Sequence record: MT446388.1
DNA length: 64,000 nucleotides
Reading direction: 5' to 3' (one strand)
DNA from: Escherichia virus TH10
Both the position numbers and the translations under genes were made by a program. Of this stretch, positions 3,118 to 25,556 are shown piece by piece (position 1 is the first letter of the stretch; each line of letters begins with the position of its first letter). Under the pieces are notes generated by a model that was not told the origin of the DNA, made no database searches, and was given only the letters and a program-made list of their open reading frames with translations.

Positions 3118-3147
3118 GGGGGCTTAAAAGCTGATACCTTAAGCCCC
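3118..3147 (+). promoter_or_regulatory. leader stem-loop, family B
   Basis: same hairpin sequence as 979-1008. Confidence 0.5.
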
Positions 3148-3191
3148 AGATAAAGAGCTTTACCACTAAATCCTAAACTGGAGATTCAAAA

Positions 3192-3734
3192 ATGAAATGT
3201 TTTCACGGTACTACTCAAGAAAATTTCATCAACCTGATTAATAACGGTGATAAACCATCAGGCGCATGGAATTGTTCGGATATGGATGGCAATTTTTACG
3301 TGTATCCAGAAAATAAAATCTATGGCGACGATGATGAAGAGATAACATCGGAAGGTATTCAGCAAGCTCTAGGCAATGCCACTATTACGGCGGCCTTCCA
3401 GATGAAAACCCAAAATATTGTTATCTTAGAACTCGATATTCCAGAGGATGAGCTAAATGATGATTATTCTTGTGATAATATGTCGAGTGTAGCAAGTTTT
3501 ACAGAGTACTTTGATGTAAATTGGATTAAAAAGGTCTATACAACAGAGTTTAACGCTATGTATTCGCCTTTTTGTCTTCCTTCATTGGATAACCCAAATT
3601 TAAACTATCTTGATGAGTCTCTGGAGCTTCTTGCTAAAAGTGTTCAACAGTCGGACAGTATTCAGGTTTTTTGTGACATCATGGATACACTGACAGGAAA
3701 CATTGCAGAAGAGGATTTAAAGAGCTTTTTCTAA
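3192..3734 (+). CDS. hypothetical strongly acidic protein (180 aa)
   Basis: Asp/Glu-rich translation (DDDEE, EDELNDDY, EEDLKS); early-region location. Confidence 0.6.
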   Translation: MKCFHGTTQENFINLINNGDKPSGAWNCSDMDGNFYVYPENKIYGDDDEEITSEGIQQALGNATITAAFQMKTQNIVILELDIPEDELNDDYSCDNMSSVASFTEYFDVNWIKKVYTTEFNAMYSPFCLPSLDNPNLNYLDESLELLAKSVQQSDSIQVFCDIMDTLTGNIAEEDLKSFF

Positions 3735-5610: not shown

Positions 5611-5859
5611 ATGTCAACTATCCGCGTAACTGTTAATGCTTATGGCTGCCACGAACTTGATGCAAAATTCGATATCGGTGGAACAGATAACACCTTTGAC
5701 CTTATCAAAATGCTGATTCAGCAGGTGCTACCAGATTATAACCCTACCGATGACTTTTGGAAGGACGCTGTAAAAGAAGCCATAAACGAGGAATATCACT
5801 ACCACTACTGGGGAGAAAAAATCGTCTCCCTATACTACAGCAAACAAGGTTACAACTAA
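5611..5859 (+). CDS. hypothetical early protein (82 aa)
   Basis: ORF after cassette; last + strand gene before the non-coding region. Confidence 0.55.
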   Translation: MSTIRVTVNAYGCHELDAKFDIGGTDNTFDLIKMLIQQVLPDYNPTDDFWKDAVKEAINEEYHYHYWGEKIVSLYYSKQGYN

Positions 5860-5894
5860 TCGACGCAACGGGGCTATTTAGCCCCAGATACCTG

Positions 5895-5922
5895 AAAAGC
5901 TCCTTCTCATAGGGGCTTTTTT
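5895..5922 (+). terminator. rho-independent terminator
   Basis: AAAGCTCC..GGGGCTTTT hairpin followed by T-run; preceded by GGGGCT-ATTT-AGCCCC hairpin at 5870-5885. Confidence 0.6.
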
Positions 5923-5929
5923 ACGTCTA

Positions 5930-7520
5930 TCCAATCCCTTCCCAGAATCTTCCCAGACTCCCCTAACAAGTTAGAATCTTACCAGACCTTAAAAGCAATA
6001 ACTCTATAGTCTACTCTATATCTTCTTATCAAATCAACTTAAATATAAGCCCATAACCCGAAAGGGAAGGGCAACCACTAAAACGCTCTATAAAGCTCTA
6101 TAACAGCCTTATCAACCTAACTTAAGCAATCATATTAACCTGCTCTAAAAAGCCCTTTATAAAGCTTCCTAGAACCTTAAAAGAATCTTATAAGGGTGTA
6201 AGCTTTATTATCTCGTTAGCTATCTTGTGAACTACTAAACAAGCCCCTTGATAGTAACTGAAAAGTATGTTATAGGGGCTATAAAGTTACTTCAAAGTTG
6301 CTTAAAAGTTACGTAAATGCTAGCCCCCTTAACATTTTCTTAACAATTTCTTAACAATCCCTACATAGTTATGCTTTTAAGGCACTTGTTAGAGACTTGT
6401 TAGCCCCTTGTTAAATCTCTGTTAAGACCACGTAAAAACCTTGTAAGAACCTTTGACATAGCCTTTAAAGCCCCTGTAAAGCCCTATAAAGAGGTATCTG
6501 TATAGTTGGGGTGTAATTACTAGGAAGAGGCTTAAAAGAGCTTACAAGGAGCTATAGAGAGCTTTTAAGAGGTATGTTTAAAGAATCACTAAGAGGGGAA
6601 GGGAACGATAAGAGAAGAGTAGTGACCATGTTAATAGCTTGTTAAAAAGATTAAACACTTGTTAGAAACTTGTTAATCATCTTAATTGGTATTGTTACCA
6701 ATCCCTACAAAATAACTCTTAAAAATTAACTTGTTAGCTCTTGTTAGTCATCTGTTAAGAGACTATAAAGACCATGTATCGTCTGTTAAGAAACTGTTAA
6801 GCCCTTGTTAGTTCTGTTAAGAATCTGTTAAGACCTTTGAAGAGTTGTTAAGAAGATGTGAGAACTGTTAAGAGATTGTTAAGGATATTTTAAAATTTTG
6901 CAAAGGGGATGTTACAGGGATGTTAAGGGCTACCAAGCAGATATACATCTTCTACAGATATTTTTCAGTTCCTTCAAAGACCCTAAAAAATGACTTGATA
7001 GTCCTATTTTATAAAAATTTTAAAAATCTGAATAATTACCTATACAGTCTTTCTAAAATACAGGTAGAAACAGGCTTATAAGATACCTTGTTAGTACCGT
7101 GTTAGACCTTGTGAGATAAGGTCTGTAAAGATATTCCTGTTAAGTTTGTTAAAACAGTCTATATAGAGGCTTAGTAATACCTAGTGAACACCTATAGAGT
7201 GTCATCTATGTGACATAGAGATTAAGAGGTGTATAGGAGCTTCTAAGAGGGTATAGAGAGATGGTTAAGGTGATTGTATAGGTTGTTAAGAAGGCTTGTT
7301 AGAAGAGTGTTTAGAAGGCTATTTAGAAGGGCTATACAGAGGGGCTATTAAGACCACTAGATAGTTACTAAGATACTATATAGTACTATATAACTATATA
7401 GAGAGTAAGATTAAGAAGGTTGTTAAGAAGGATAGATATTTTATTCACATATGATGGTGACCCAGAGGTTGGGACAACCGATAAAATTTTATAAAAAATA
7501 TAAATTTCGTAAATTTTACT
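5930..7520. repeat. ORF-free iteron-rich region
   Basis: no ORF of 60 aa or more in any frame; at least 25 copies of (C/T)TGTTA(A)G in mostly one orientation, often about 11 bp apart (densest 6650-6900), plus CTATA(A/G)AG family. Confidence 0.8.
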
Positions 7521-7524
7521 CAAT

Positions 7525-7548
7525 AAAAAGCCCCCAATTAAGGAGGCT
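7525..7548 (-). terminator. rho-independent terminator (minus strand)
   Basis: reverse complement GAGCCTCC-TTAATT-GGGGGCT followed by TTTTT; near-identical element in + orientation at 60090-60113. Confidence 0.6.
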
Positions 7549-7559
7549 CTTAAGATATT

Positions 7560-8153
7560 TTAAATCAGTGTTTCCAGAACTGTTTTTAGTGATGACTTGG
7601 TTGTCTGATAAAAATGAGTAAAGCCATTGTTGTTATCAAATACCTGCATCATGATATCATCTCCCTTGATTGGGTACACTCGGATATCATAGTGAAAACC
7701 ATTAAAGACACAAGAGCCATTACAGAATGCACTAAAGTCATCAACTGAGATATACTCTTCATGTCCTGTGATTTTTATACAAACACCTTTACTCGGTCTC
7801 TTAGGGTTGATATCTTCCATCACAGACATATTCTGCCCACCAAGAGATACCATAGTGACCACTTTACGGTTCTTCTGCCTAAAGTACATCTTAACTTTCT
7901 GTAAAGTGTCTTCATAGAACGGATAAGACCTTTCTACAAAGATTCCTTCAAGTGGCTCTTTACCATTTTCAACCTCTCTGTTATGCCGTACTGCAAAGAT
8001 AATTTGTTCGAACCAGTCAAGATTTTCTTCGGAGAGTGCTTCCCGAACATCCTTCCAGTCAAGTACTAAGTAGTTACCTTCAACTTCTTTTAAGTTATCT
8101 TTTTCCATATCTATCACACCATTATCGTAAAACTTGGTAGGCTGGTACTGCAA
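7560..8153 (-). CDS. hypothetical protein (197 aa)
   Basis: ORF; start may be internal Met at 8108. Confidence 0.55.
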   Translation of the reverse strand: MQYQPTKFYDNGVIDMEKDNLKEVEGNYLVLDWKDVREALSEENLDWFEQIIFAVRHNREVENGKEPLEGIFVERSYPFYEDTLQKVKMYFRQKNRKVVTMVSLGGQNMSVMEDINPKRPSKGVCIKITGHEEYISVDDFSAFCNGSCVFNGFHYDIRVYPIKGDDIMMQVFDNNNGFTHFYQTTKSSLKTVLETLI

Positions 8154-12750: not shown

Positions 12751-13215
12751 TTACTTTGGATATACACTGTCAAGATAAATGTCAGCTTCCATTCTTCGTC
12801 TATTTTTCAGACCGTTTGAAGTGACCTTCTGACCTTTGACTGTAACCTTGTTCCACCACTGCATAGCTTCTGCACAACCTACCTTATTACCAGCATTGTG
12901 GCGCTTGATAAATGTAGAATCCTGCATAGCTGTAATACCGATGTTGTATGTTTCACTTACAAGAGCATCGAACTCATTCTGAGAAGTAGGAACCTTGATA
13001 GCTTTGTTCACTGCTGCAACAAACTTTTCAACATCTGCAAGAAGATACTGTTCAGCTTGTTCAGCCGTGATTTTCATACCCATCTTAACAGGTTTTCCGT
13101 CAATACGGATTGTACCATACCCGATTGTTGGGATTCCGGCAGAGTCTTCGTAAGCCTCTAACTTCAGACCTTCAAAGAACTTAATAGCTTCTAAACCTTT
13201 TCTTGAGAGTTGCAT
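12751..13215 (-). CDS. endolysin, T4-lysozyme-like muramidase (GH24)
   Basis: N-terminal FEGLKLEAYEDSAGIPTIGYGT matches the T4 lysozyme catalytic Glu/Asp/Thr region. Confidence 0.85.
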   Translation of the reverse strand: MQLSRKGLEAIKFFEGLKLEAYEDSAGIPTIGYGTIRIDGKPVKMGMKITAEQAEQYLLADVEKFVAAVNKAIKVPTSQNEFDALVSETYNIGITAMQDSTFIKRHNAGNKVGCAEAMQWWNKVTVKGQKVTSNGLKNRRRMEADIYLDSVYPK

Positions 13216-14348
13216 TATGCCCCTCCTACTGGACTAACTGTAACTGTTGCAGCGTTAGACGTTACAGAGCCACCTGCACCAGTAACTACACAGGTGTAGC
13301 TTCCTGAATCAGCAGCGGTTGCACCTTCTTTAGTGTAAGTTGCAGCGGTTGCATCAAGGATATCTTCCTCACCTTTCTTCCACTGGTAACCTGTTGCACC
13401 TGTTGCCACAACATTCAGTGTTAAGGTCTCACCTTCATTGATTTCTTGATTGGTTGGCTGTTGAGTGATTACTGGAAGTGCATTCACAGTAACTGTTGCA
13501 GCGTTAGACGTTACAGAGCCACCTGCACCTGTTACAACGCAAGTGTATGAACCAGCATCTGCTGGAAGTGCACCAGATTTGCTATATGTAGCCTTTGTAG
13601 CCGAAGGGATGTCAGAACCATCTTTCTTCCACTGGTAACCAGTTGCACCTGTTGCAGTAACTGCTAAGCTGATGTTTCCACCTTCATTAATAGTCTGGTT
13701 AGAAGGTTGCTTGGTAATCACAGGTAGTGCGTTCACAGTCACTGTTGCTGCATCTGATGTAACACTTGTTCCACCCTCTCCAGATACAACACAAGTGTAT
13801 GAACCAGCGTCAGAAGGTGCTACTGACTGTTTTGTGTAAGTTGCAGAATTGGCACTAGGGATGTCCTCACCATCCTTTTTCCACTGATATCCAGTGGCAT
13901 TAGTTGCTAGAATGCTTAGAGTAAGTGTGCCACCCTCATTGACTGTTTGACCTGTTGGTTGCTGAGTAATCGCTGGTGGCTTAATAGCATCCTTCAACTT
14001 AGCATTCAACATTGAGAACGGCTTAACTCTTGCCAACCATTCACAGTAAATTGTGTCAACATCTTTACCATTGATGATTGCATACTGCAAATCCATGAAG
14101 AAATCAGCAGTTCTCATCTGTGCACCAACACTGTAAAGGAGTTCATTACTAAAAGGAACTTTGTAGTCTGGTTTGTAATCAAACTTCTCAACTTCTGCAA
14201 TATCAGCTTCAGGCCAATATGAGCTATAGGTGAGTGGTAAAATAGCCTCTTGATATGTTCTAAAATCATATCTCTTACCAGCTTTTACGTTTGCAATGAA
14301 GCCCTTCACAAACTCTTTGAAGTCTGGGTAAGTCTTTGCTTTAATCAT
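13215..14348 (-). CDS. protein with three tandem Ig-like domains (377 aa)
   Basis: three repeats of about 82 aa with (Q/K)QP..Q..NEGG.L.L...ATGATGYQWKK.G.DI..A..ATY.K....A.D.GSYTCVV.G.GG; N-terminal 125 aa paralogous to 14345..14716. Confidence 0.75.
   Translation of the reverse strand: MIKAKTYPDFKEFVKGFIANVKAGKRYDFRTYQEAILPLTYSSYWPEADIAEVEKFDYKPDYKVPFSNELLYSVGAQMRTADFFMDLQYAIINGKDVDTIYCEWLARVKPFSMLNAKLKDAIKPPAITQQPTGQTVNEGGTLTLSILATNATGYQWKKDGEDIPSANSATYTKQSVAPSDAGSYTCVVSGEGGTSVTSDAATVTVNALPVITKQPSNQTINEGGNISLAVTATGATGYQWKKDGSDIPSATKATYSKSGALPADAGSYTCVVTGAGGSVTSNAATVTVNALPVITQQPTNQEINEGETLTLNVVATGATGYQWKKGEEDILDATAATYTKEGATAADSGSYTCVVTGAGGSVTSNAATVTVSPVGGA
13240..13985. repeat. three tandem DNA repeats of about 246 bp
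   Basis: near-identical blocks, e.g. ACTGTTGCAGCGTTAGACGTTACAGAGCCACCTGCACC at about 13245 and 13493; encode the Ig-like repeats. Confidence 0.7.
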
Positions 14349-14716
14349 TTCTTTTTAGCCTCTAAATGTGCGTTTAGTCTAAAATAACCTTTGTGGTGTG
14401 GAGATACATCACCAACAACAATACCTTTAACCTTATAACCTTTACCAATTACATACTGGATATCCATAAGGAATCTACCAAGACCAACAATATGGAACAT
14501 TGGATATAATAGATTCTCAGAATCTGGAATATTGATTTCAGGTTTGTAGGTGCGTTGTTCGCTTGTTGGTGTAATATCTTCTTCAGGCCATTTACTGAGT
14601 CTCCATGTCAAAGGTGTTGGGATAACATCATTAAGATTGTACCTCTCACCATTTTTCACGGAATTGATGTAGGATTGTAGGAAGCAATAAAAGTCTTTTG
14701 CACTCTTAGCCTTCAT
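14345..14716 (-). CDS. hypothetical protein, paralog of the N-domain of the Ig-repeat protein (123 aa)
   Basis: shared motifs (KDF..F...I..VK.G.RY, EADI/EEDI, YKP, F.MDLQY.I.GK). Confidence 0.6.
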   Translation of the reverse strand: MKAKSAKDFYCFLQSYINSVKNGERYNLNDVIPTPLTWRLSKWPEEDITPTSEQRTYKPEINIPDSENLLYPMFHIVGLGRFLMDIQYVIGKGYKVKGIVVGDVSPHHKGYFRLNAHLEAKKK

Positions 14717-14763
14717 TAAATATCCTTATAAACAGATAAAGGGGCACTAGCCCCTATTTACAC

Positions 14764-15354
14764 TTAAGCTTTAGTCTTAAGTAGGTTCTTAAGCTTTTTG
14801 AGATTCATACTCTCGTCAAACTTAAAACCAAATCCATTGACGTAATCAATGAACTCGGATTTTTTACTAAGTGATAGCGCATAATCCATATCAAAGCTGT
14901 TACTTGTTTCTGCGTCTGGACTAGAGTTCACATCAAATGAAATTTCTGTAGGCTCTTGCTTATTCTTTCTCATATTATCAACCAATAAGCAGGTATAGTT
15001 TGCTGGATAGAAGTTAACACTACCATCAACATAGCTATACTTATTATTGTGAATAAGATTGGAAAATACCTTAAAGAATGTTTCTGAGTCGTGGCACACA
15101 AGTTTGAATTGACTGCTCTCTCCAAGAGCAACTAATGAGTACGGACTTTCACTATCAAAGTCATAGTTTGGATTCGATGCCGTCACTGTTACACGCATCA
15201 AATTGTTAGCAATTGTCTTTTGCTTAAAAGAGTTTTGAACATAGAAAAGACCTCTACCACACTGGTTAACTAACTCTTTAAGTAGGTCATTTGCATATGG
15301 TGAATTAATTGATACAGAACCATCACTATTGTAATTAAAACTTACTGTTAACAT
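14764..15354 (-). CDS. hypothetical protein (196 aa)
   Basis: ORF. Confidence 0.55.
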   Translation of the reverse strand: MLTVSFNYNSDGSVSINSPYANDLLKELVNQCGRGLFYVQNSFKQKTIANNLMRVTVTASNPNYDFDSESPYSLVALGESSQFKLVCHDSETFFKVFSNLIHNNKYSYVDGSVNFYPANYTCLLVDNMRKNKQEPTEISFDVNSSPDAETSNSFDMDYALSLSKKSEFIDYVNGFGFKFDESMNLKKLKNLLKTKA

Positions 15355-15581
15355 TTTTCAGTTCTCCTGCGATTTATAATTTTGCTGCAATAGAGAAACG
15401 AAGTAAACTCACTGGAAGAAACCATTAAGTGTTGTTCACTAGATTGAGCCATTGCCCTGAAATACATTCCAGTCAAAGCATCATAGTGACTATTCTTTCC
15501 AATTGAGGTTATATAGCCATGACTCTTTGCAGTTTGGTATAAATCAATAATATCTGCGATTTCTAATTGGGAACTACACAT
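15348..15581 (-). CDS. hypothetical protein (77 aa)
   Basis: ORF. Confidence 0.45.
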   Translation of the reverse strand: MCSSQLEIADIIDLYQTAKSHGYITSIGKNSHYDALTGMYFRAMAQSSEQHLMVSSSEFTSFLYCSKIINRRRTEKC

Positions 15582-15745
15582 AGATAATCCTCTTGTCTTC
15601 TGTAATTTTGAAAGAACAGGTACAGACCAATTTCAGAGGACGAATAGTAGAATAATTCTACCCTTTTTGATTCCTTACAGTGATTGGTATTTTTACCTTT
15701 CTTCGGTTTATTTGATTTTCTCATTAAGTCTCCTTTGTAGAACAA
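15563..15745 (-). CDS. hypothetical basic small protein (60 aa)
   Basis: ORF; first gene of minus block. Confidence 0.4.
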   Translation of the reverse strand: MFYKGDLMRKSNKPKKGKNTNHCKESKRVELFYYSSSEIGLYLFFQNYRRQEDYLCVVPN

Positions 15746-15823
15746 GGCAGACCTACAGCTTTAAGTAAGATGGTACAGTAATCCATACAACAAGTCAAGA
15801 ACTATTGCAAGTTAAAAAAGTTG

Positions 15824-15852
15824 TTGACAAAGTACTTGACAAGGTGTAGGCT
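15824..15852. promoter_or_regulatory. conserved tandem TTGACA motif in divergent intergenic region
   Basis: TTGACAAAGTACTTGACAAGGTGT; near-identical motif at 58639-58665 in another divergent region. Confidence 0.45.
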
Positions 15853-15973
15853 TATAAATACTTAGAAGATTACTTAAAAGGTTCCTCTAAAAAGGCTATT
15901 TAAACAGATATCTTTCTGGATATCTATCTTTTATCTTAAAAGCCTTTTAAGAGGTCTTATAAGAGGCATACCA

Positions 15974-16345
15974 ATGAAAAACAGAACAAACAAAGGCCAG
16001 TTTAAAAAAGGCCAATCTGGAAACCCATCTGGAAGACCAAAAGGCTCTCGCAACAAAAGCTCACTTGTAAAAGCTCAACTGACCATTGACAATTCTGCTG
16101 AGTTTGCTGCAAAGTTATTTGAAGCGATTGTTACAAGGGATGCTGCTAAGCTTGCAGAGTTCGGGTTAAACACAGATGACGTAACCATCAAGAGCATGAT
16201 TGAAGTTGGTAAAACTATCATGACTCACTCAGCAGGTGAGATGAAAGCAATTGCAGCAGACACTAAGAAGACCCCTGATAACGGTGGTCAACCTCAGACA
16301 GATAACAAACCAACGTTCTCTGCTGTAGCGACTCTTAAAAAATAA
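15974..16345 (+). CDS. hypothetical protein with GQSGNPSGRPKG motif (123 aa)
   Basis: ORF; basic Gly/Pro-rich N-terminus. Confidence 0.55.
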   Translation: MKNRTNKGQFKKGQSGNPSGRPKGSRNKSSLVKAQLTIDNSAEFAAKLFEAIVTRDAAKLAEFGLNTDDVTIKSMIEVGKTIMTHSAGEMKAIAADTKKTPDNGGQPQTDNKPTFSAVATLKK

Positions 16346-16357
16346 TTTTAAAAGGTG

Positions 16358-16387
16358 TTGACAGACTCTACAAAGTTGCTCTATAGT
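16358..16387 (+). promoter_or_regulatory. sigma70-like promoter (TTGACA-18-TATAGT)
   Basis: hexamers upstream of 16427 gene, A/T-rich UP region. Confidence 0.55.
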
Positions 16388-16426
16388 CTGTCACATCAAA
16401 CAACAAATGAGAGAAGAGAGTAAAAT

Positions 16427-17842
16427 ATGAGCGAATTATTTAAACATGCGCACCTTCATGCAGGTCGAACTGAAAATGGTGCTGTAAACCATACTTCATC
16501 AATGTCTGCTCTTGTAGACTTTTACAAAGCTGCTGGTTCTAGCCGTAGCAATGTAGAAATCTTACCAGACTTGTTCTACAAAGCTTTGCATGAGGATGTT
16601 GATGTTGCAGTTCGTATTTTACTGCATATGCGAGATGTACGAGAAGGTATGGGTGAGCGTAAAGCTTTCCGAACTGTTTTACTTCAAGCAATTGAAGATA
16701 AGATTTTAGAGCCTACACAGGTTCTTCGCATTATGGATAAGATTGCAGAGCTTGGTCGTTTTGATGACTTCAAAATCTTCGTCGGTACTCGTTTCGAAAC
16801 AGATGCCTTCAAACATTTAGAAGCTGCATTACTAGACCCTGCAACAGCAGGTTTGGCAGCCAAGTGGTTACCACGAGTCAAACCACGCCATAAGCATTTT
16901 GTAAAACGTTTCTGCAAGTTTGCAAACTTAAGTGAGAAAGAGTACCGCACACTGTTGTCTGCACTATCTGATACAGTTGAGCAAAAAATCTCTGCTAATG
17001 AGTTTGGTAAGATTGACTACAGTAAGATTCCTTCACTTGCTGCTGCACGTTACCAAAAACTGTTTAACCGTAAAGATGGAGAGCGCTACAAAGCTTACAT
17101 CGAGTCATTATCAAAGGGTGAGGCTAAGATTAATGCTGGTGCTGTTTACCCATACGATGTGATTAAATCTGTTAAGTATGGTAATGCAGATGTTGCTAAT
17201 GAGCAGTGGAAAGCACTACCAAACTGGATGGCAGAGGGTGAAAACATTCTATGTATGTCTGATGTTTCAAGTTCAATGTCTTGGGTGAATTTTGGCTCAA
17301 TTACTGCCCTTGATATTGGTGTATCACTTGCCTTGTATGTAGCAGAACGCAATACAGGTTGCTTTAAGAACGAGTTAATGGTTTATTCAACAAACCCTCA
17401 TTTCATCGAACTGAGTGGCGATTTAAAGAACCGTCACCGTCAGGTAATGCGACATGTTGAATACGGTTCAACTAACTTACAAGCAGCTTTTGACCGCATC
17501 CTTGAGACAGGTAAGAGAAACAACTTGACTCAGAAAGATATGCCAAGTAAGCTTATCATCTTCTCTGATATGGAGTTCAATCAGGTTGACGGTGCAAATG
17601 GTCGTACAAACTTTGAAGCAATTCAGAGTAAGTACAAAAAAGCTGGATATGAGATGCCACAACTGGTATTCTGGTACTTAGCAAACCGTAATGGTACTTG
17701 CGAAGTATCTGTTAAGGATAACGGTGTAGCAATGGTATCTGGTTTCTCTCCAGCCACTTTAAAAGCTCTGCTTGGTGGTGAGAAGTTTGACCCAATCAGT
17801 GTAATGCTCAAAGCAGTAATGATTGACCGTTATATCTGGTAA
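16427..17842 (+). CDS. vWA-domain protein with Ro60 (TROVE+vWA)-like architecture (471 aa)
   Basis: C-terminal MIDAS motif D-V-S-S-S (LCMSDVSSSMSW) and later FSDME typical of vWA; about 270-aa helical N-terminal domain; sits immediately 5' of the tRNA/Y-RNA-like array. Confidence 0.6.
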   Translation: MSELFKHAHLHAGRTENGAVNHTSSMSALVDFYKAAGSSRSNVEILPDLFYKALHEDVDVAVRILLHMRDVREGMGERKAFRTVLLQAIEDKILEPTQVLRIMDKIAELGRFDDFKIFVGTRFETDAFKHLEAALLDPATAGLAAKWLPRVKPRHKHFVKRFCKFANLSEKEYRTLLSALSDTVEQKISANEFGKIDYSKIPSLAAARYQKLFNRKDGERYKAYIESLSKGEAKINAGAVYPYDVIKSVKYGNADVANEQWKALPNWMAEGENILCMSDVSSSMSWVNFGSITALDIGVSLALYVAERNTGCFKNELMVYSTNPHFIELSGDLKNRHRQVMRHVEYGSTNLQAAFDRILETGKRNNLTQKDMPSKLIIFSDMEFNQVDGANGRTNFEAIQSKYKKAGYEMPQLVFWYLANRNGTCEVSVKDNGVAMVSGFSPATLKALLGGEKFDPISVMLKAVMIDRYIW

Positions 17843-17860
17843 AAAGTTTTAAAAAGGGTA

Positions 17861-17889
17861 TTGACAATGTGTTTAATACCCTTTAATAT
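17861..17889 (+). promoter_or_regulatory. sigma70-like promoter (TTGACA-17-TAATAT)
   Basis: hexamers between the vWA gene and tRNA array. Confidence 0.5.
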
Positions 17890-17951
17890 GTTCTACATAG
17901 AAACGAAATGAGAGCTTTTCTAAGATACTGAAAAATATTTTAAAAAAGTTC

Positions 17952-17980
17952 TTGACAATCACTAAAAAATAATGTTAAAG
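17952..17980 (+). promoter_or_regulatory. possible promoter (TTGACA .. TTAAAG)
   Basis: -35 good, -10 weak; about 30 nt upstream of first tRNA. Confidence 0.35.
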
Positions 17981-18007
17981 TGGTTACATAGAGTTTGAAA
18001 AGTTTAT

Positions 18008-18084
18008 CTCTGTTTAGCTCAGCTTGGTAGAGCGTTCCGTTTGGGGCGGTAAGGCCGGAGGTTCAAGTCCTCCAACAGAGACCA
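18008..18084 (+). tRNA. tRNA-Pro (UGG)
   Basis: 7-bp acceptor CTCTGTT/AACAGAG, T-arm GGAGG-TTCAAGT-CCTCC, loop ttTGGgg, encoded CCA. Confidence 0.75.
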
Positions 18085-18091
18085 AATTAAT

Positions 18092-18169
18092 GTTCCAGTA
18101 GACAAAATGGTAAAGTCACCACTCTTTCAAAGTGGATATCTGAGGGTTCAAATCCCTTCTGGAACGCCA
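18092..18169 (+). tRNA. tRNA-Glu (UUC)
   Basis: acceptor GTTCCAG/CTGGAAC, anticodon stem CCACT/AGTGG, loop ctTTCaa, CCA. Confidence 0.8.
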
Positions 18170-18176
18170 GTTTTGA

Positions 18177-18248
18177 CAGAAGACCAATTACAGCAAACTT
18201 AATCTACTCATCTGAAAGTTAATCGGACAAAGAAGATATTTGGTCTGG
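18177..18248 (+). ncRNA. structured element 1 (CAGAAGACC..GGTCTGG helix)
   Basis: 5' CAGAAGACCAA pairs with 3' TTGGTCTGG; no ORF; one of 4 copies with compensatory changes. Confidence 0.4.
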
Positions 18249-18259
18249 TCATTAAGAAT

Positions 18260-18336
18260 TGCGGGTATAGAGAAAGGGCGTCTCACATGTCTCATTAGCA
18301 TGGTATCGGCAGGTTCGACTCCTGCACCCGCCTCCA
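18260..18336 (+). tRNA. tRNA with CAU anticodon (Met or Ile2), atypical
   Basis: T-arm GCAGG-TTCGACT-CCTGC, acceptor with 1-72 mismatch, loop ctCATta, CCA; irregular D arm and 6-nt variable region. Confidence 0.55.
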
Positions 18337-18342
18337 ATTTTG

Positions 18343-18401
18343 CAGAAGACCGTATTCAGCAACAAAATACTTTTTGCGGATAAAAGAAAAACACGGTCTG
18401 G
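18343..18401 (+). ncRNA. structured element 2 (CAGAAGACC..GGTCTGG helix)
   Basis: 5' CAGAAGACCGT pairs with 3' ACGGTCTGG. Confidence 0.4.
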
Positions 18402-18412
18402 CAATGTATTAA

Positions 18413-18489
18413 GGTTAGGAAGCACATAAGGTATGTGCGGTCGCCTGTTAAGCGAATGGCACAGGGTTCGAATCCCTGACTAACCGCCA
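18413..18489 (+). tRNA. tRNA-Asn (GUU)
   Basis: T-arm CAGGG-TTCGAAT-CCCTG, D-stem GCAC/GTGC, loop ctGTTaa, CCA. Confidence 0.75.
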
Positions 18490-18497
18490 AATTAAAT

Positions 18498-18585
18498 GTG
18501 TCGTTATCCCGTAGATGGTAGCGGTGGGGACTGTAAATCCCTTGTCATTGAGACTCGGTAGGTTCGACTCCTACACGGCACACCA
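18498..18585 (+). tRNA. tRNA-Tyr (GUA), type II
   Basis: acceptor GTGTCGT/ACGGCAC, anticodon stem GGGGA/TCCCT, loop ctGTAaa, long variable arm, T-arm GTAGG-TTCGACT-CCTAC, CCA. Confidence 0.8.
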
Positions 18586-18590
18586 ATAAA

Positions 18591-18667
18591 GGCTATGTAG
18601 TTTAACTGGAGAAAATACTCCCCTGTCACGGGAGATGATGTGAGTTCAAGTCTCATCGTAGCCGCCA
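18591..18667 (+). tRNA. tRNA-Asp (GUC)
   Basis: acceptor GGCTATG/CGTAGCC, anticodon stem CTCCC/GGGAG, loop ctGTCac, CCA. Confidence 0.8.
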
Positions 18668-18728
18668 ATTTTGAGAGGGCTATTTAGCCCCTCCCTTAAA
18701 GAGTTCTTACGAGTATTCTTTAAAGGAG

Positions 18729-18804
18729 CAGAAGACCAAATACAGCAAGAACGTATGAAAATTTCAAGCCAATTTAATTTTGAAAAATTTAAAACTTGGT
18801 CTGG
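18729..18804 (+). ncRNA. structured element 3 (CAGAAGACC..GGTCTGG helix)
   Basis: 5' CAGAAGACCAA pairs with 3' TTGGTCTGG; interior A/T-rich. Confidence 0.4.
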
Positions 18805-18817
18805 CTCAACAAATTTA

Positions 18818-18948
18818 CAGAAGACCGTTTACAGCAAAACTTAAACAATCTATTTCTCGGTAAAGAAAAGGCGAAGGTTCGATTCCTTCACTCGGCAGAT
18901 GTCGAGTTGGTGTAATGGTAGCACTTAAGATGATAAACAACGGTCTGG
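18818..18948 (+). ncRNA. candidate Y-RNA-like RNA: permuted tRNA-like module closed by terminal helix
   Basis: order is helix strand (CAGAAGACCGTT), T-arm (GAAGG-TTCGATT-CCTTC), acceptor 3' strand ACTCGGC, 4-nt loop, acceptor 5' strand GTCGAGT (7 bp incl. one G-U), D-arm GTG-TAATGGTAG-CAC, helix strand (AACGGTCTGG). Confidence 0.5.
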
Positions 18949-19097
18949 TAATTGTCTTTGTAGATAAGTTATTAAGCTTACCTGTGAGTATGCGACCACA
19001 AAGGGTGAAAGGGTAAATTCTAGATTTAAACCCAAAAAGGCACATCGCTACAGACCTTAAGCAAGTCTGGGTAGCTTATCTACAAAGATAATTTAAT

Positions 19098-19173
19098 GGA
19101 AGTGTAGCAGAATGGTGATGCGGCAGACTTTTAATCTGACAGGCGATGGGTTCGAATCCCTCCACTTCTACCA
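19098..19173 (+). tRNA. tRNA-Lys (UUU)
   Basis: acceptor GGAAGTG/CACTTCT, anticodon stem CAGA/TCTG, loop ctTTTaa, GGGTTCGAATCCC T-arm, CCA. Confidence 0.7.
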
Positions 19174-19251
19174 AATTCACCCTTAACTGAGAAACACCTG
19201 CGCGGCTGGAAACACCCACTCAACAGTTTCTCTAACTAGGGTACTTATTCT

Positions 19252-19328
19252 GGTTCAGTCGCAGATAAGGTAATGCAAGGGTCTCATAAGCCCTATGAAT
19301 GTGGGTTCGATTCCCATCTGAACCTCCA
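19252..19328 (+). tRNA. tRNA with CAU anticodon (Met/Ile2)
   Basis: acceptor GGTTCAG/CTGAACC, anticodon stem AGGGT/GCCCT, loop ctCATaa, T-arm GTGGG-TTCGATT-CCCAT, CCA. Confidence 0.7.
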
Positions 19329-19329
19329 A

Positions 19330-19405
19330 GCTGGTATAGTTAAGAAGGTTATAACACTCCCCTGATAAGGGAACATCGGTGGTTCGATTCCACCTACCAG
19401 TACCA
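19330..19405 (+). tRNA. tRNA-Ile (GAU)
   Basis: acceptor GCTGGTA/TACCAGT, loop ctGATaa, T-arm GGTGG-TTCGATT-CCACC, CCA. Confidence 0.75.
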
Positions 19406-19420
19406 ATTTCAATAAAGTTG

Positions 19421-19449
19421 TTGACATTGAGATGTGACAGCTTTATAGT
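19421..19449 (+). promoter_or_regulatory. sigma70-like promoter (TTGACA-17-TATAGT)
   Basis: consensus hexamers inside tRNA array; followed by about 200 nt ORF-free transcript before tRNA-Arg. Confidence 0.55.
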
Positions 19450-19652
19450 AACCTTAGTTTTCGTTGCGTAGCGTCTATTTTGCAAATTTAAAATAAATGC
19501 AAACGACAATGTTTTTCTGGCAGTAGCTTGATAGGCTAAACACCAGTGAGGTCTTCCAACCCCTCATCAAAGAATTTGGCGTACTAGCCCACGGTATGAT
19601 TAATAAGGTGGGCATCTTTAAGGGCTTTCTCAGAGAGTCTTTAAAGATTAAT

Positions 19653-23732: not shown

Positions 23733-23933
23733 ATGAGCGAGACCGTTTATAAAGAACTTTACGAAGCTAACAAGAAGCTAGAATTTATGCAGAACACTAT
23801 CATGGCAATTGCAGACAGACTATCTGTAGCAACAGGTATTGATATTCAAGAAGCGTCTATGGATGCACTTCTTGACGCTGTTGATGCAAAGTTCGAAGTT
23901 AAGAAAGAAGAGACTGCTACAGACTCTGAATAA
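23733..23933 (+). CDS. hypothetical small protein upstream of terminase (66 aa)
   Basis: ORF; position suggests a packaging-associated protein. Confidence 0.5.
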   Translation: MSETVYKELYEANKKLEFMQNTIMAIADRLSVATGIDIQEASMDALLDAVDAKFEVKKEETATDSE

Positions 23934-23954
23934 TTCTATTTGCGGAGGTGCTTA

Positions 23955-25556
23955 ATGGACTTAAATGCTGTTAAGCAGAAGCGAGTGGAAGATGTTAGGA
24001 AAGTCCTAGCTGGAGAGTTGGGGCTTTCTGATGAAGTAAAAGAAATTATCAAATCATTCGGTAAAGACCCCTCTAAATTCCTTCCAACTCAAATTCTGAC
24101 TTTATTAAGATACACACCAGACCAAGTTAGACTTATCTTCAAATTGATGACTGATAAGAACTATGTAGCCCCTCAGCCGGGTTCTCAAGAGGTCTTTTTA
24201 AACACTAATGCTGACTTGGTTCTCTATGGTGGTGCTGCTGGTGCTGGTAAGACGGCTGCATTGCTAATGGACTCTTTAAGGTTTATTGATGACCCTAATT
24301 ATAATGCTGTATATTTCCGTCGAAATACAACACAGCTACAAGGTGGTTTGTGGCCTGCTGCAAAGAAACTATTTGGTAAGTTTGGTGGGGTTCCTCACGA
24401 GCAGAAGATGACTATCACATTCCCTTCTGGGGCAACTATCAAGTTTACCTACCTAGAACTTGAAAAGCACGCTGAAGGTCATCAGGGTATTGAATACTCA
24501 GCTATTTACTTTGACGAAGGTACTCACTTCTCTGCTTCACAGATTTCATACCTACAGACTCGTCTGCGTTCTGGGGCTGAAGGTGATTCATACATGAAGA
24601 TTTCTATGAACCCAGACAGAGACCACTTTATTTACGATTGGGTAGAACCATTCTTAGATGAAGAAGGTTACCCAGACCCTGAAAAGTGTGGTCGTATTCG
24701 TTGGTATGTAATGAATGATGGTGTTATGGTTTCTGATTGGGAGAGAGACAAGATTCTTGAAATGTTTCCTCTTGAGATTCCTCAAACATATACATTCATC
24801 TCTGGTACGATTGATGATAACCCAATTCTTGACTTCTTAGAACCAAAATATCGCGGTAAGTTGGAAAACAACACCCCTGTAAACGTTGCAAGACTTCGTT
24901 TCGGTAACTGGAAGGCTCGTGCAGAAGGTTCAAACTATTGGCAAAGACAATGGTGTGAAATTGTTGATTCACTCCCAGAAGATGTATTCGATGTCAGAGC
25001 ATGGGACTTAGCAGCAACTTTACCATCTGAGATTAACCCTAATCCAGACTGGACAGCAGGTGTTAAGATGGGTAAATCTAAAAAAGACGGTTGCTATTAT
25101 ATCATTGATGTAGTAAGATTTAGAGATAGACCCTCTGGAGTCGAAACACAAATTAATTTGACTGCTGAAAGTGACGGTAAGCGAACTGGTATTTTTATCC
25201 CTCAAGACCCAGGCGCTGCTGGTAAATCCTACGCAACATCCCTCATCAGGAAACTTGCCGAGAAAGGTTATCGAGCAAGAGCTAAACCAACAAATAAAGA
25301 CAAAGTTACCCGATTTGCGGGGTTTTCTGCTGCTTCTGAAGCTGGACTTGTAAAAGTCTTGAGAGGTAGTTGGAACGAAGCTTACTTCCAAGAACTTGAA
25401 GGCTTTTGTGGTGATGGTAAAACTAAAGATGACCAAGTGGATGCTACCAGTGATGCTTTCAACAGTCTTAACGAAGTTAAATTATTCAAGCCACCATCAA
25501 TGGGTGCTCACACAGACTTAGTGAGAGGAAACCCATATGAGGGGCTTAGACGTTGA
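23955..25556 (+). CDS. terminase large subunit
   Basis: Walker A LYGGAAGAGKT; about 530 aa; first gene of late module; ATG 23955 after GGAGG. Confidence 0.8.
   Translation: MDLNAVKQKRVEDVRKVLAGELGLSDEVKEIIKSFGKDPSKFLPTQILTLLRYTPDQVRLIFKLMTDKNYVAPQPGSQEVFLNTNADLVLYGGAAGAGKTAALLMDSLRFIDDPNYNAVYFRRNTTQLQGGLWPAAKKLFGKFGGVPHEQKMTITFPSGATIKFTYLELEKHAEGHQGIEYSAIYFDEGTHFSASQISYLQTRLRSGAEGDSYMKISMNPDRDHFIYDWVEPFLDEEGYPDPEKCGRIRWYVMNDGVMVSDWERDKILEMFPLEIPQTYTFISGTIDDNPILDFLEPKYRGKLENNTPVNVARLRFGNWKARAEGSNYWQRQWCEIVDSLPEDVFDVRAWDLAATLPSEINPNPDWTAGVKMGKSKKDGCYYIIDVVRFRDRPSGVETQINLTAESDGKRTGIFIPQDPGAAGKSYATSLIRKLAEKGYRARAKPTNKDKVTRFAGFSAASEAGLVKVLRGSWNEAYFQELEGFCGDGKTKDDQVDATSDAFNSLNEVKLFKPPSMGAHTDLVRGNPYEGLRR

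Follow-up and report, generated by a model that had tools for sequence, protein, structure and literature searches.

In the paradigm provided by phage T7, replicated genomes form concatemers that carry one copy of the terminal repeat per junction, terminase cuts at these junctions and strand-displacement synthesis supplies the second copy of the repeat. Dunn and Studier are said to have described the T7 concatemer junction in 1983 as a succession of right-end repeats (SRR), a 160-bp terminal repeat (TR) and left-end repeats (SRL), and the left 470 bp of T7, the sequence of which we read, have 14 CYTAAAG heptamers, some within the TR and others next to it, which are confined to the + strand. 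Well-known terminase recognition sites, namely the R sites of lambda cosB, the P1 pac hexamers and SPP1 pacL/pacR, have 3-7 repeats within ~100-200 bp and a known small terminase (TerS). In the Felix O1-like myophages (subfamily Ounavirinae, genus Felixounavirus), short exact terminal repeats of the virion DNA have been established, and the 608-bp direct terminal repeat (DTR) of UAB_Phi87, whose ends were determined by Bal31 digestion and run-off sequencing, has been printed (in Fig. S1) as 5'-AACATTTTCTTAACAA...GATGTTAAGGGCTACCAA-3' (Bardina et al., 2016; PMC4837284). Here, we examine a region of another member of this genus, Escherichia virus TH10, at positions 5930-7520 of a 64,000-nt stretch of sequence record MT446388.1 (the window), which an earlier sequence-only reading had singled out as a heptamer array free of open reading frames (ORFs).

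This region is, with a probability that we put at roughly 0.85-0.9 on the strength of homology, the chromosome-end (DTR) junction of the phage. The UAB_Phi87 DTR as printed matches window positions 6331-6936 (606 bp) end to end, as well as 15150-15757 (608 bp) of its own record, and finds only one BLAST match in the 64-kb window, because the assembler collapsed the two end copies into one. Repeats homologous to this DTR are present at both ends of two other records, an identical 444 bp in Erwinia phage M7 (vB_EamM-M7, NC_041978) and ~581 bp with 99.5% identity in Salmonella phage GE_vB_7A, and both repeats start at three inverted heptamers and end just before GCAGATATACA. Moreover, five independent records from two genera (BPS15Q2, SPT-1, NBEco005, GE_vB_7A and M7) start at the equivalent of window positions 6309-6329, that is, within 21 bp of one another at the left boundary of the DTR, of which only M7 and GE_vB_7A hold the repeat at both ends. 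The likeness to the DTRs of UAB_Phi87 and M7 (608 bp and 444 bp, versus 606 bp here) thus comprises homologous sequence, the same boundaries and the same heptamers.

Since the DTR of the genus has already been published, the identity of the region is known: it is an element of a known kind, the sources for UAB_Phi87 and M7 reporting the repeat and its length only, not the phased heptamers, the flanking arrays or the conservation across the subfamily. The sequence-only reading, which had listed a terminal-repeat boundary or a packaging recognition site among its candidate roles, was essentially right, with the added twist that the core of the array (6331-6936) is, by homology, the DTR itself. 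Its own caveat, that the region might be a terminal repeat mishandled by the assembly, with iterons that relatives do not share, turns out to be half founded, because a collapsed terminal repeat is indeed involved, but the iterons are real and have been kept in more than 200 relatives from four genera.

The published restriction data can be set beside this map. Bal31-sensitive SpeI fragments of UAB_Phi87 measure 2819 and 4322 bp (PMC4837284), and the only SpeI sites around the array (UAB_Phi87 record, 13019-19587) give computed terminal fragments of 2739-2749 and 4437 bp, whereas a terminal fragment would be 1.1 kb if coordinate 1 of that record were the end. Published and computed sizes thus agree as far as the neighbourhood of the ends is concerned, with 80-115 bp left over. 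That coordinate 1 might be a physical end, with the DTR ~14.5 kb away from the array, was rejected because the DTR printed in Fig. S1 is the array itself. Records of this group do open at arbitrary or conventional places (Bas63 before TerL, Felix O1 before rIIA). As an aside, the genome length of UAB_Phi87 is 87,669 bp in the paper and 87,603 bp in the record.

The right boundary of the DTR falls between ...GGGCTACCAA and GCAGATATACA, and the left boundary comes directly after a box that reads AAAGTTACGTAAATGCTAGCCCCCTT(A), with an uncertainty of ~2-12 bp for the latter (6319-6331). Across 11 genomes from Felixounavirus, Suspvirus and Mooglevirus, neither boundary sequence varies, and both can still be recognised in Kolesnikvirus. 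This invariance across genera, together with the clustering of the five record starts, argues for sequence-defined ends, and, as judged from the genomes compared, the ends of the DTR are fixed by sequence and not permuted.

The array has most of the properties that had been attributed to it. There is, as announced, no ORF of at least 60 codons in the region (the longest ORFs touching it are 53, 45 and 56 aa), and hidden small ORFs are ruled out by the presence of 37-53 stop codons in each of the six frames. When compared with 1000 dinucleotide shuffles of the region, the + strand contains 25 YTGTTA (1.7±1.3 expected, with a shuffle maximum of 7), 22 TGTTA(A)G (1.2 expected) and, as for the second type of repeat that had been noticed, six CTATARAG (0.28 expected), the over-representation of the heptamer being ~15-fold. 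The count of at least 25 heptamers in the sequence-only reading is therefore correct for the looser YTGTTA but too high for the strict YTGTTA(A)G, which occurs 20 times (12+8) on this strand. The predominance of one orientation is equally clear, with only 4-5 heptamers on the minus strand, three of which are tandem CTTAACA copies at 6329-6357.

The reported spacing of about one helical turn was also found. Exactly 11 bp separate the heptamers in 12 of 29 consecutive intervals (most of the others are ~20, 22, 31 or 33 bp), and the best-fitting period, computed from pairwise distances of at most 70 bp, is 10.3-10.4 bp (Rayleigh R = 0.66), which places the heptamers on one face of the helix. With 16 sites, 6501-7000 is the densest 500-bp bin, compared with a mean of 0.89 and a maximum of 4 per 500 bp elsewhere, and no second cluster of the motif (at least 3 sites) was found anywhere else in the 64-kb window. 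In view of the absence of another cluster in these 64 kb, the idea of a transcription-factor regulon was rejected.

The DTR, which contains 22 of the 30 TGTTA sites on the + strand, has the three inverted CTTAACA heptamers at its extreme left end, where they are spaced by 11 bp and kept in all genera. Four direct heptamers (CTTGTTAG / CTGTTAAG) follow on the + strand at 6387-6426, with an exact 11-bp spacing and positions that are kept in relatives, and then come four more direct + strand heptamers at 6629-6677, spaced by 11/20/11 bp. The main array, also on the + strand, consists of 13 YTGTTA(A)G-type copies (6732-6927) and passes directly into TTTTGCAAAGG...GGGCTACCAA, the conserved block at the right boundary. 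This last stretch is the sole one that BLAST still aligns to Erwinia phages, and the arrays are collinear with those of Erwinia phage Panisse. Two of the heptamer units include ATCTGTT (6750-6756 and 6823-6829), which is the core of the class II pause signal of T7 RNA polymerase and is present in the T7 terminal repeat, a match that is probably coincidental because Felix O1-like phages encode no T7-like RNA polymerase.

On both sides, the DTR is flanked by ORF-free arrays of short motifs that occur in one orientation, which corresponds to the SRR-TR-SRL layout of T7. The left flank (5930-6330), which would lie just inward of the right-end DTR copy, is C-rich (GC skew of -0.31), and k-mer enrichment revealed four CTCTATA together with TATAAAG and CTTAAAAG, none of which has a single reverse-complement copy; it ends in the left boundary box. 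The right flank (6937-7520), which would be the internal side of the left-end copy, opens with the invariant GCAGATATACA and contains the AT-richest stretch of the region just outside the DTR (6955-7060, 23.6% GC), seven further TGTTA sites (7089-7425) and the G-rich repeats TATAGAG, TTAGAAG and AAGAAGG, again in one orientation (there are zero reverse-complement copies of TATAGAG, TTAGAAG and TGTTA). It also includes a perfect consensus DnaA box (TTATTCACA) at 7441-7449, which is kept in relatives. The flip in GC skew had hinted that the region as a whole might be dyad-symmetric. This idea was rejected, because the flank repeats have the same orientation on both sides and inversion is confined to the three heptamers at the left tip.

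The terminators that had been predicted to bracket the region are real. On the + strand, a Rho-independent terminator (5894-5921), a hairpin followed by U6, ends the early gene block that would run toward the right chromosome end (the fold of 5862-5930 has a free energy of -28.3 kcal/mol and z = -4.7), and a terminator has been annotated at the homologous place in Maleficent. On the − strand, another one (7525-7550), a hairpin followed by U5, ends the gene block that would run toward the left chromosome end, and its equivalent has been annotated in wV8 and KhF3. The convergent transcription units on either side of the junction are, on the DTR reading, the two arms of a linear virion chromosome, each transcribed toward its own end and closed by a terminator.

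Conservation of this organisation extends well beyond the genus. The region, which in TH10 is that of a Felixounavirus, matches 286 phage records, 205 of which cover at least 80% of it (KhF3 is the best match, at 95%), and every matching relative has it as an ORF-free interval enclosed by the same pair of gene blocks. Suspvirus, Mooglevirus and, at a greater distance, Kolesnikvirus (Erwinia phages) possess an equivalent interval in this position, with 18-27 TGTTAR and the same pattern of clusters. Between genera, the junction is 77-82% identical over 90-100% of its length, whereas flanking ORFs are aligned over 5-38% of their length only, or show 65-80% identity, and within the junction the motif columns are 92% conserved versus 84% for the rest. 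On this comparative evidence, the junction is a core cis-acting element of the subfamily, because it is conserved beyond the neighbouring genes and most of all in its motif columns.

The flank units are a different matter. In Kolesnikvirus, the left flank (3119-3662 in Panisse) contains 12 TTCTAA in one orientation, versus 0.4 expected, which replace CTCTATA/TATAAAG, and the right flank has eight GTTAAG-like sites. The DTR heptamer (TGTTAAG) is thus common to Kolesnikvirus and Felixounavirus, whereas the units in the flanks diverge and the three-part plan is kept. In Suspvirus, Mooglevirus and Kolesnikvirus, other genes take the place of some of those beside the junction (5611-5859, 7560-8153 and neighbours).

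How might such a junction work? The virion DNA would be linear, reading from the 606-bp repeat (6331-6936) through 6937-7520 to the − strand genes and, at the other end, from the + strand early genes through 5930-6330 to the second copy of the repeat. During infection, genomes would be linked into head-to-tail concatemers in which neighbouring genomes share a single repeat, and terminase would recognise the junction and cut it between ...CCCCCTT(A) and AACATT..., and between ...CTACCAA and GCAGATATACA. The repeat would be duplicated, by strand-displacement synthesis if the T7 model applies, so that each packaged genome bears a copy at both ends; cutting and duplication are inferred here from the T7 paradigm. 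The phased heptamers and the distinct one-orientation flank repeats would then most likely form the cis-acting platform for the packaging and end-processing machinery, perhaps with a small-terminase-like or other DNA-binding protein sitting on one face of the helix. Binding of a protein assembly to one face of the DNA, over the repeat as well as next to it, is argued for by the helical phasing, the strict polarity, the restriction to a single locus and the conserved positions. Recognition of the junction and positioning of the two cuts would be the simplest role of the heptamers and, by analogy with other phages, one to which we would give even odds.

Several observations weigh against this interpretation. 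The chromosome ends of TH10 have been placed by homology to the ends of other phages, among which the left boundary differs by 2-12 bp (UAB_Phi87, GE_vB_7A and M7), and the published SpeI fragments are, respectively, 80 bp longer and 115 bp shorter than those computed on the deposited UAB_Phi87 record. As for the machinery, neither a TerS nor another candidate heptamer-binding protein was recognised in a search that included the surroundings of TerL, and because no binding protein was recognised, the packaging role of the heptamers rests on analogy. Nor do we know of a firmly established function for the corresponding short repeats of T7.

TerL itself is present at 23940-25556 (Terminase_6N/6C, phrog_979), and directly upstream of it, where a gene for TerS would be expected, is a 66-aa ORF (23733-23933, + strand) that belongs to a family of unknown function (phrog_4397). 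An earlier genome analysis of Felix O1-like phages likewise found TerL only (Whichard, 2010), and Bardina et al. (2016; PMC4837284) assign TerL to a DTR group of Felix O1-like phages on the basis of its clustering.

Among phages outside the subfamily, the T7 junction is the closest analogue as a short exact DTR associated with ORF-free, one-orientation arrays of heptamers at a chromosome-end site, the repeats of both phages ending in AAG. The differences are nevertheless considerable. T7 belongs to an unrelated family of podoviruses with their own RNA polymerase, its TR is 160 bp long rather than 606 bp, its heptamers are mostly outside the TR whereas those of TH10 are mostly inside the DTR, its early genes lead from the left end into the chromosome whereas both arms are transcribed outward here, and its small terminase (gp18) has been identified whereas none is recognisable in TH10. 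With the cosB, P1 pac and SPP1 pac sites, the junction shares several short, helically phased repeats beside cleavage positions, which suggests, again by analogy, that the DNA may be wrapped on an oligomeric recognition protein. However, TH10 has ~35 sites over ~1.5 kb and no recognisable TerS.

A bolder version of the packaging hypothesis starts from the lack of a recognisable small terminase in Ounavirinae. In it, a novel type of junction-recognition factor docks on the ~35 helically phased heptamers and the genus-specific flank repeats, which is a tentative idea that we would currently bet against. Such a factor, a phage protein of unknown fold or a host protein, might measure out the 606-bp repeat and place both cuts, which is again possible but doubtful. 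If the docking idea were true, the parallel with the ...TAAAG heptamers of T7 would point to a shared mechanism for duplicating short terminal repeats.

Other explanations for the heptamers have to be weighed against recognition of the junction by terminase. They could have another function at the chromosome ends, for example, by binding a protein that protects the ends or takes part in ejection, by slowing DNA exit or entry, or by promoting end-to-end recombination for the formation of concatemers. The location of the sites in both terminal copies, on one helix face and with strong polarity, would suit such a function, as would the lack of a recognisable TerS and the three inverted copies exactly at the left tip. 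Nevertheless, recognition of the junction is at least as good an explanation for the seven right-flank sites, located beyond the repeat, and for the flank repeats specific to each genus, and we consider an end function of this sort unlikely. Still less probable is a replication origin, the first candidate of the sequence-only reading, in which the heptamers would be iterons for a phage or host initiator and 6955-7060 the unwinding element. Many phased direct repeats do adjoin the AT-richest 100 bp of the region, GC skew switches sign across it, there is the conserved consensus DnaA box and, as in the low-affinity DnaA arrays of oriC, sites in the same orientation are spaced by 11 bp. The AT-rich stretch would suit an unwinding element, without being diagnostic of one. 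However, the extent of the element is exactly that of the terminal repeat plus flanks, and a place at the physical termini already accounts for its conservation and uniqueness. Moreover, there is no enrichment of DnaA boxes (1 in the region versus 9 in 64 kb), the search for an initiator gene found none, the ORFs on either side (5611-5859 and 7560-8153) lack an initiator-like domain and match only families of unknown function, the 35 sites over 1.5 kb far exceed what is seen in characterised iteron origins, and replication genes and presumed early divergent promoters are located elsewhere in the genome. The origin proposal thus has no specific support. A DnaA oligomer array or DnaA sponge, with TGTTAAGAA being two mismatches away from the reverse-complemented DnaA box at an 11-bp spacing, was dropped as well since consensus boxes are not enriched.

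Two further readings are much harder to defend. It is very improbable that the region gives rise to a non-coding RNA, or several, in which protein-binding motifs recur, even if nucleotide conservation over 1.6 kb is above that of the neighbouring genes, the two halves show opposite strand-specific purine bias and sigma-70-like matches are in excess (13 versus 7.8±2.4 expected). The region has no match to an Rfam family and is bracketed by inward-facing terminators, and the promoter-like matches stem from TTAACA, the reverse complement of the heptamer, which resembles a -35 hexamer. The sequence-only reading had also invoked the first-step transfer of T5-like phages, in which the array would be an injection stop that marks the end of the segment transferred first. 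Untranslated repeat region 3 of T5, associated with the injection stop, is more than 1 kb long, repeat-rich and conserved (Davison, 2020 preprint, 10.1101/866236), and the resemblance is genuine since both regions are untranslated, rich in repeats, tied to a terminal-repeat boundary that they overlap and better conserved than neighbouring ORFs. In T5, however, the pre-early genes separate the region from the end, which is ~9-10 kb away, and the region is organised around inverted repeats with paired DnaA boxes, none of which holds for TH10. Here, the repeat is ~606 bp and not ~10 kb, only 0-1.2 kb separate the array from the chromosome end, a distance that includes no genes and hence no pre-early segment, and DnaA boxes are neither paired nor enriched, which leaves the T5-like framing with almost no credence.

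The junction of a linear chromosome with sequence-defined ends is therefore the reading that we prefer, and although the DTR as such is not new, its architecture appears to be. In the searchable literature on Felix O1-like phages (Whichard, 2010; Villegas, 2009; and work on VpaE1, comparative Felixounavirus genomes, BASEL, PhageMaP and Bas63 cryo-EM), the phased heptamers, the flank/DTR/flank plan and the conservation across four genera are undescribed, and the published DTR figure is all that was found on this region. This has practical implications since hundreds of Felix O1-like genomes for biocontrol of Salmonella or E. coli have been deposited with arbitrary starts, and the immediate gain is correct annotation. 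Considering 6331-6936 as the terminal repeat fixes the physical map and accounts for the convergent gene blocks. The junction is the best-conserved non-coding element of the subfamily, in a lineage without a recognisable small terminase, and the phased heptamers offer a concrete handle on how ends are recognised and duplicated, a question that also concerns the T7 repeats.

Finally, a few minor features of the junction deserve mention. Small 'hypothetical proteins' have been annotated inside it in several records, and these are spurious. In wV8 and L27, the AGTTACGTAAA box just left of the boundary (~6305) shows an 11-bp duplication. A stretch of ~20 bp within the DTR (6686-6706) is unaligned in other genomes and there are small indels among close relatives, with the result that the length of the DTR varies slightly between isolates.

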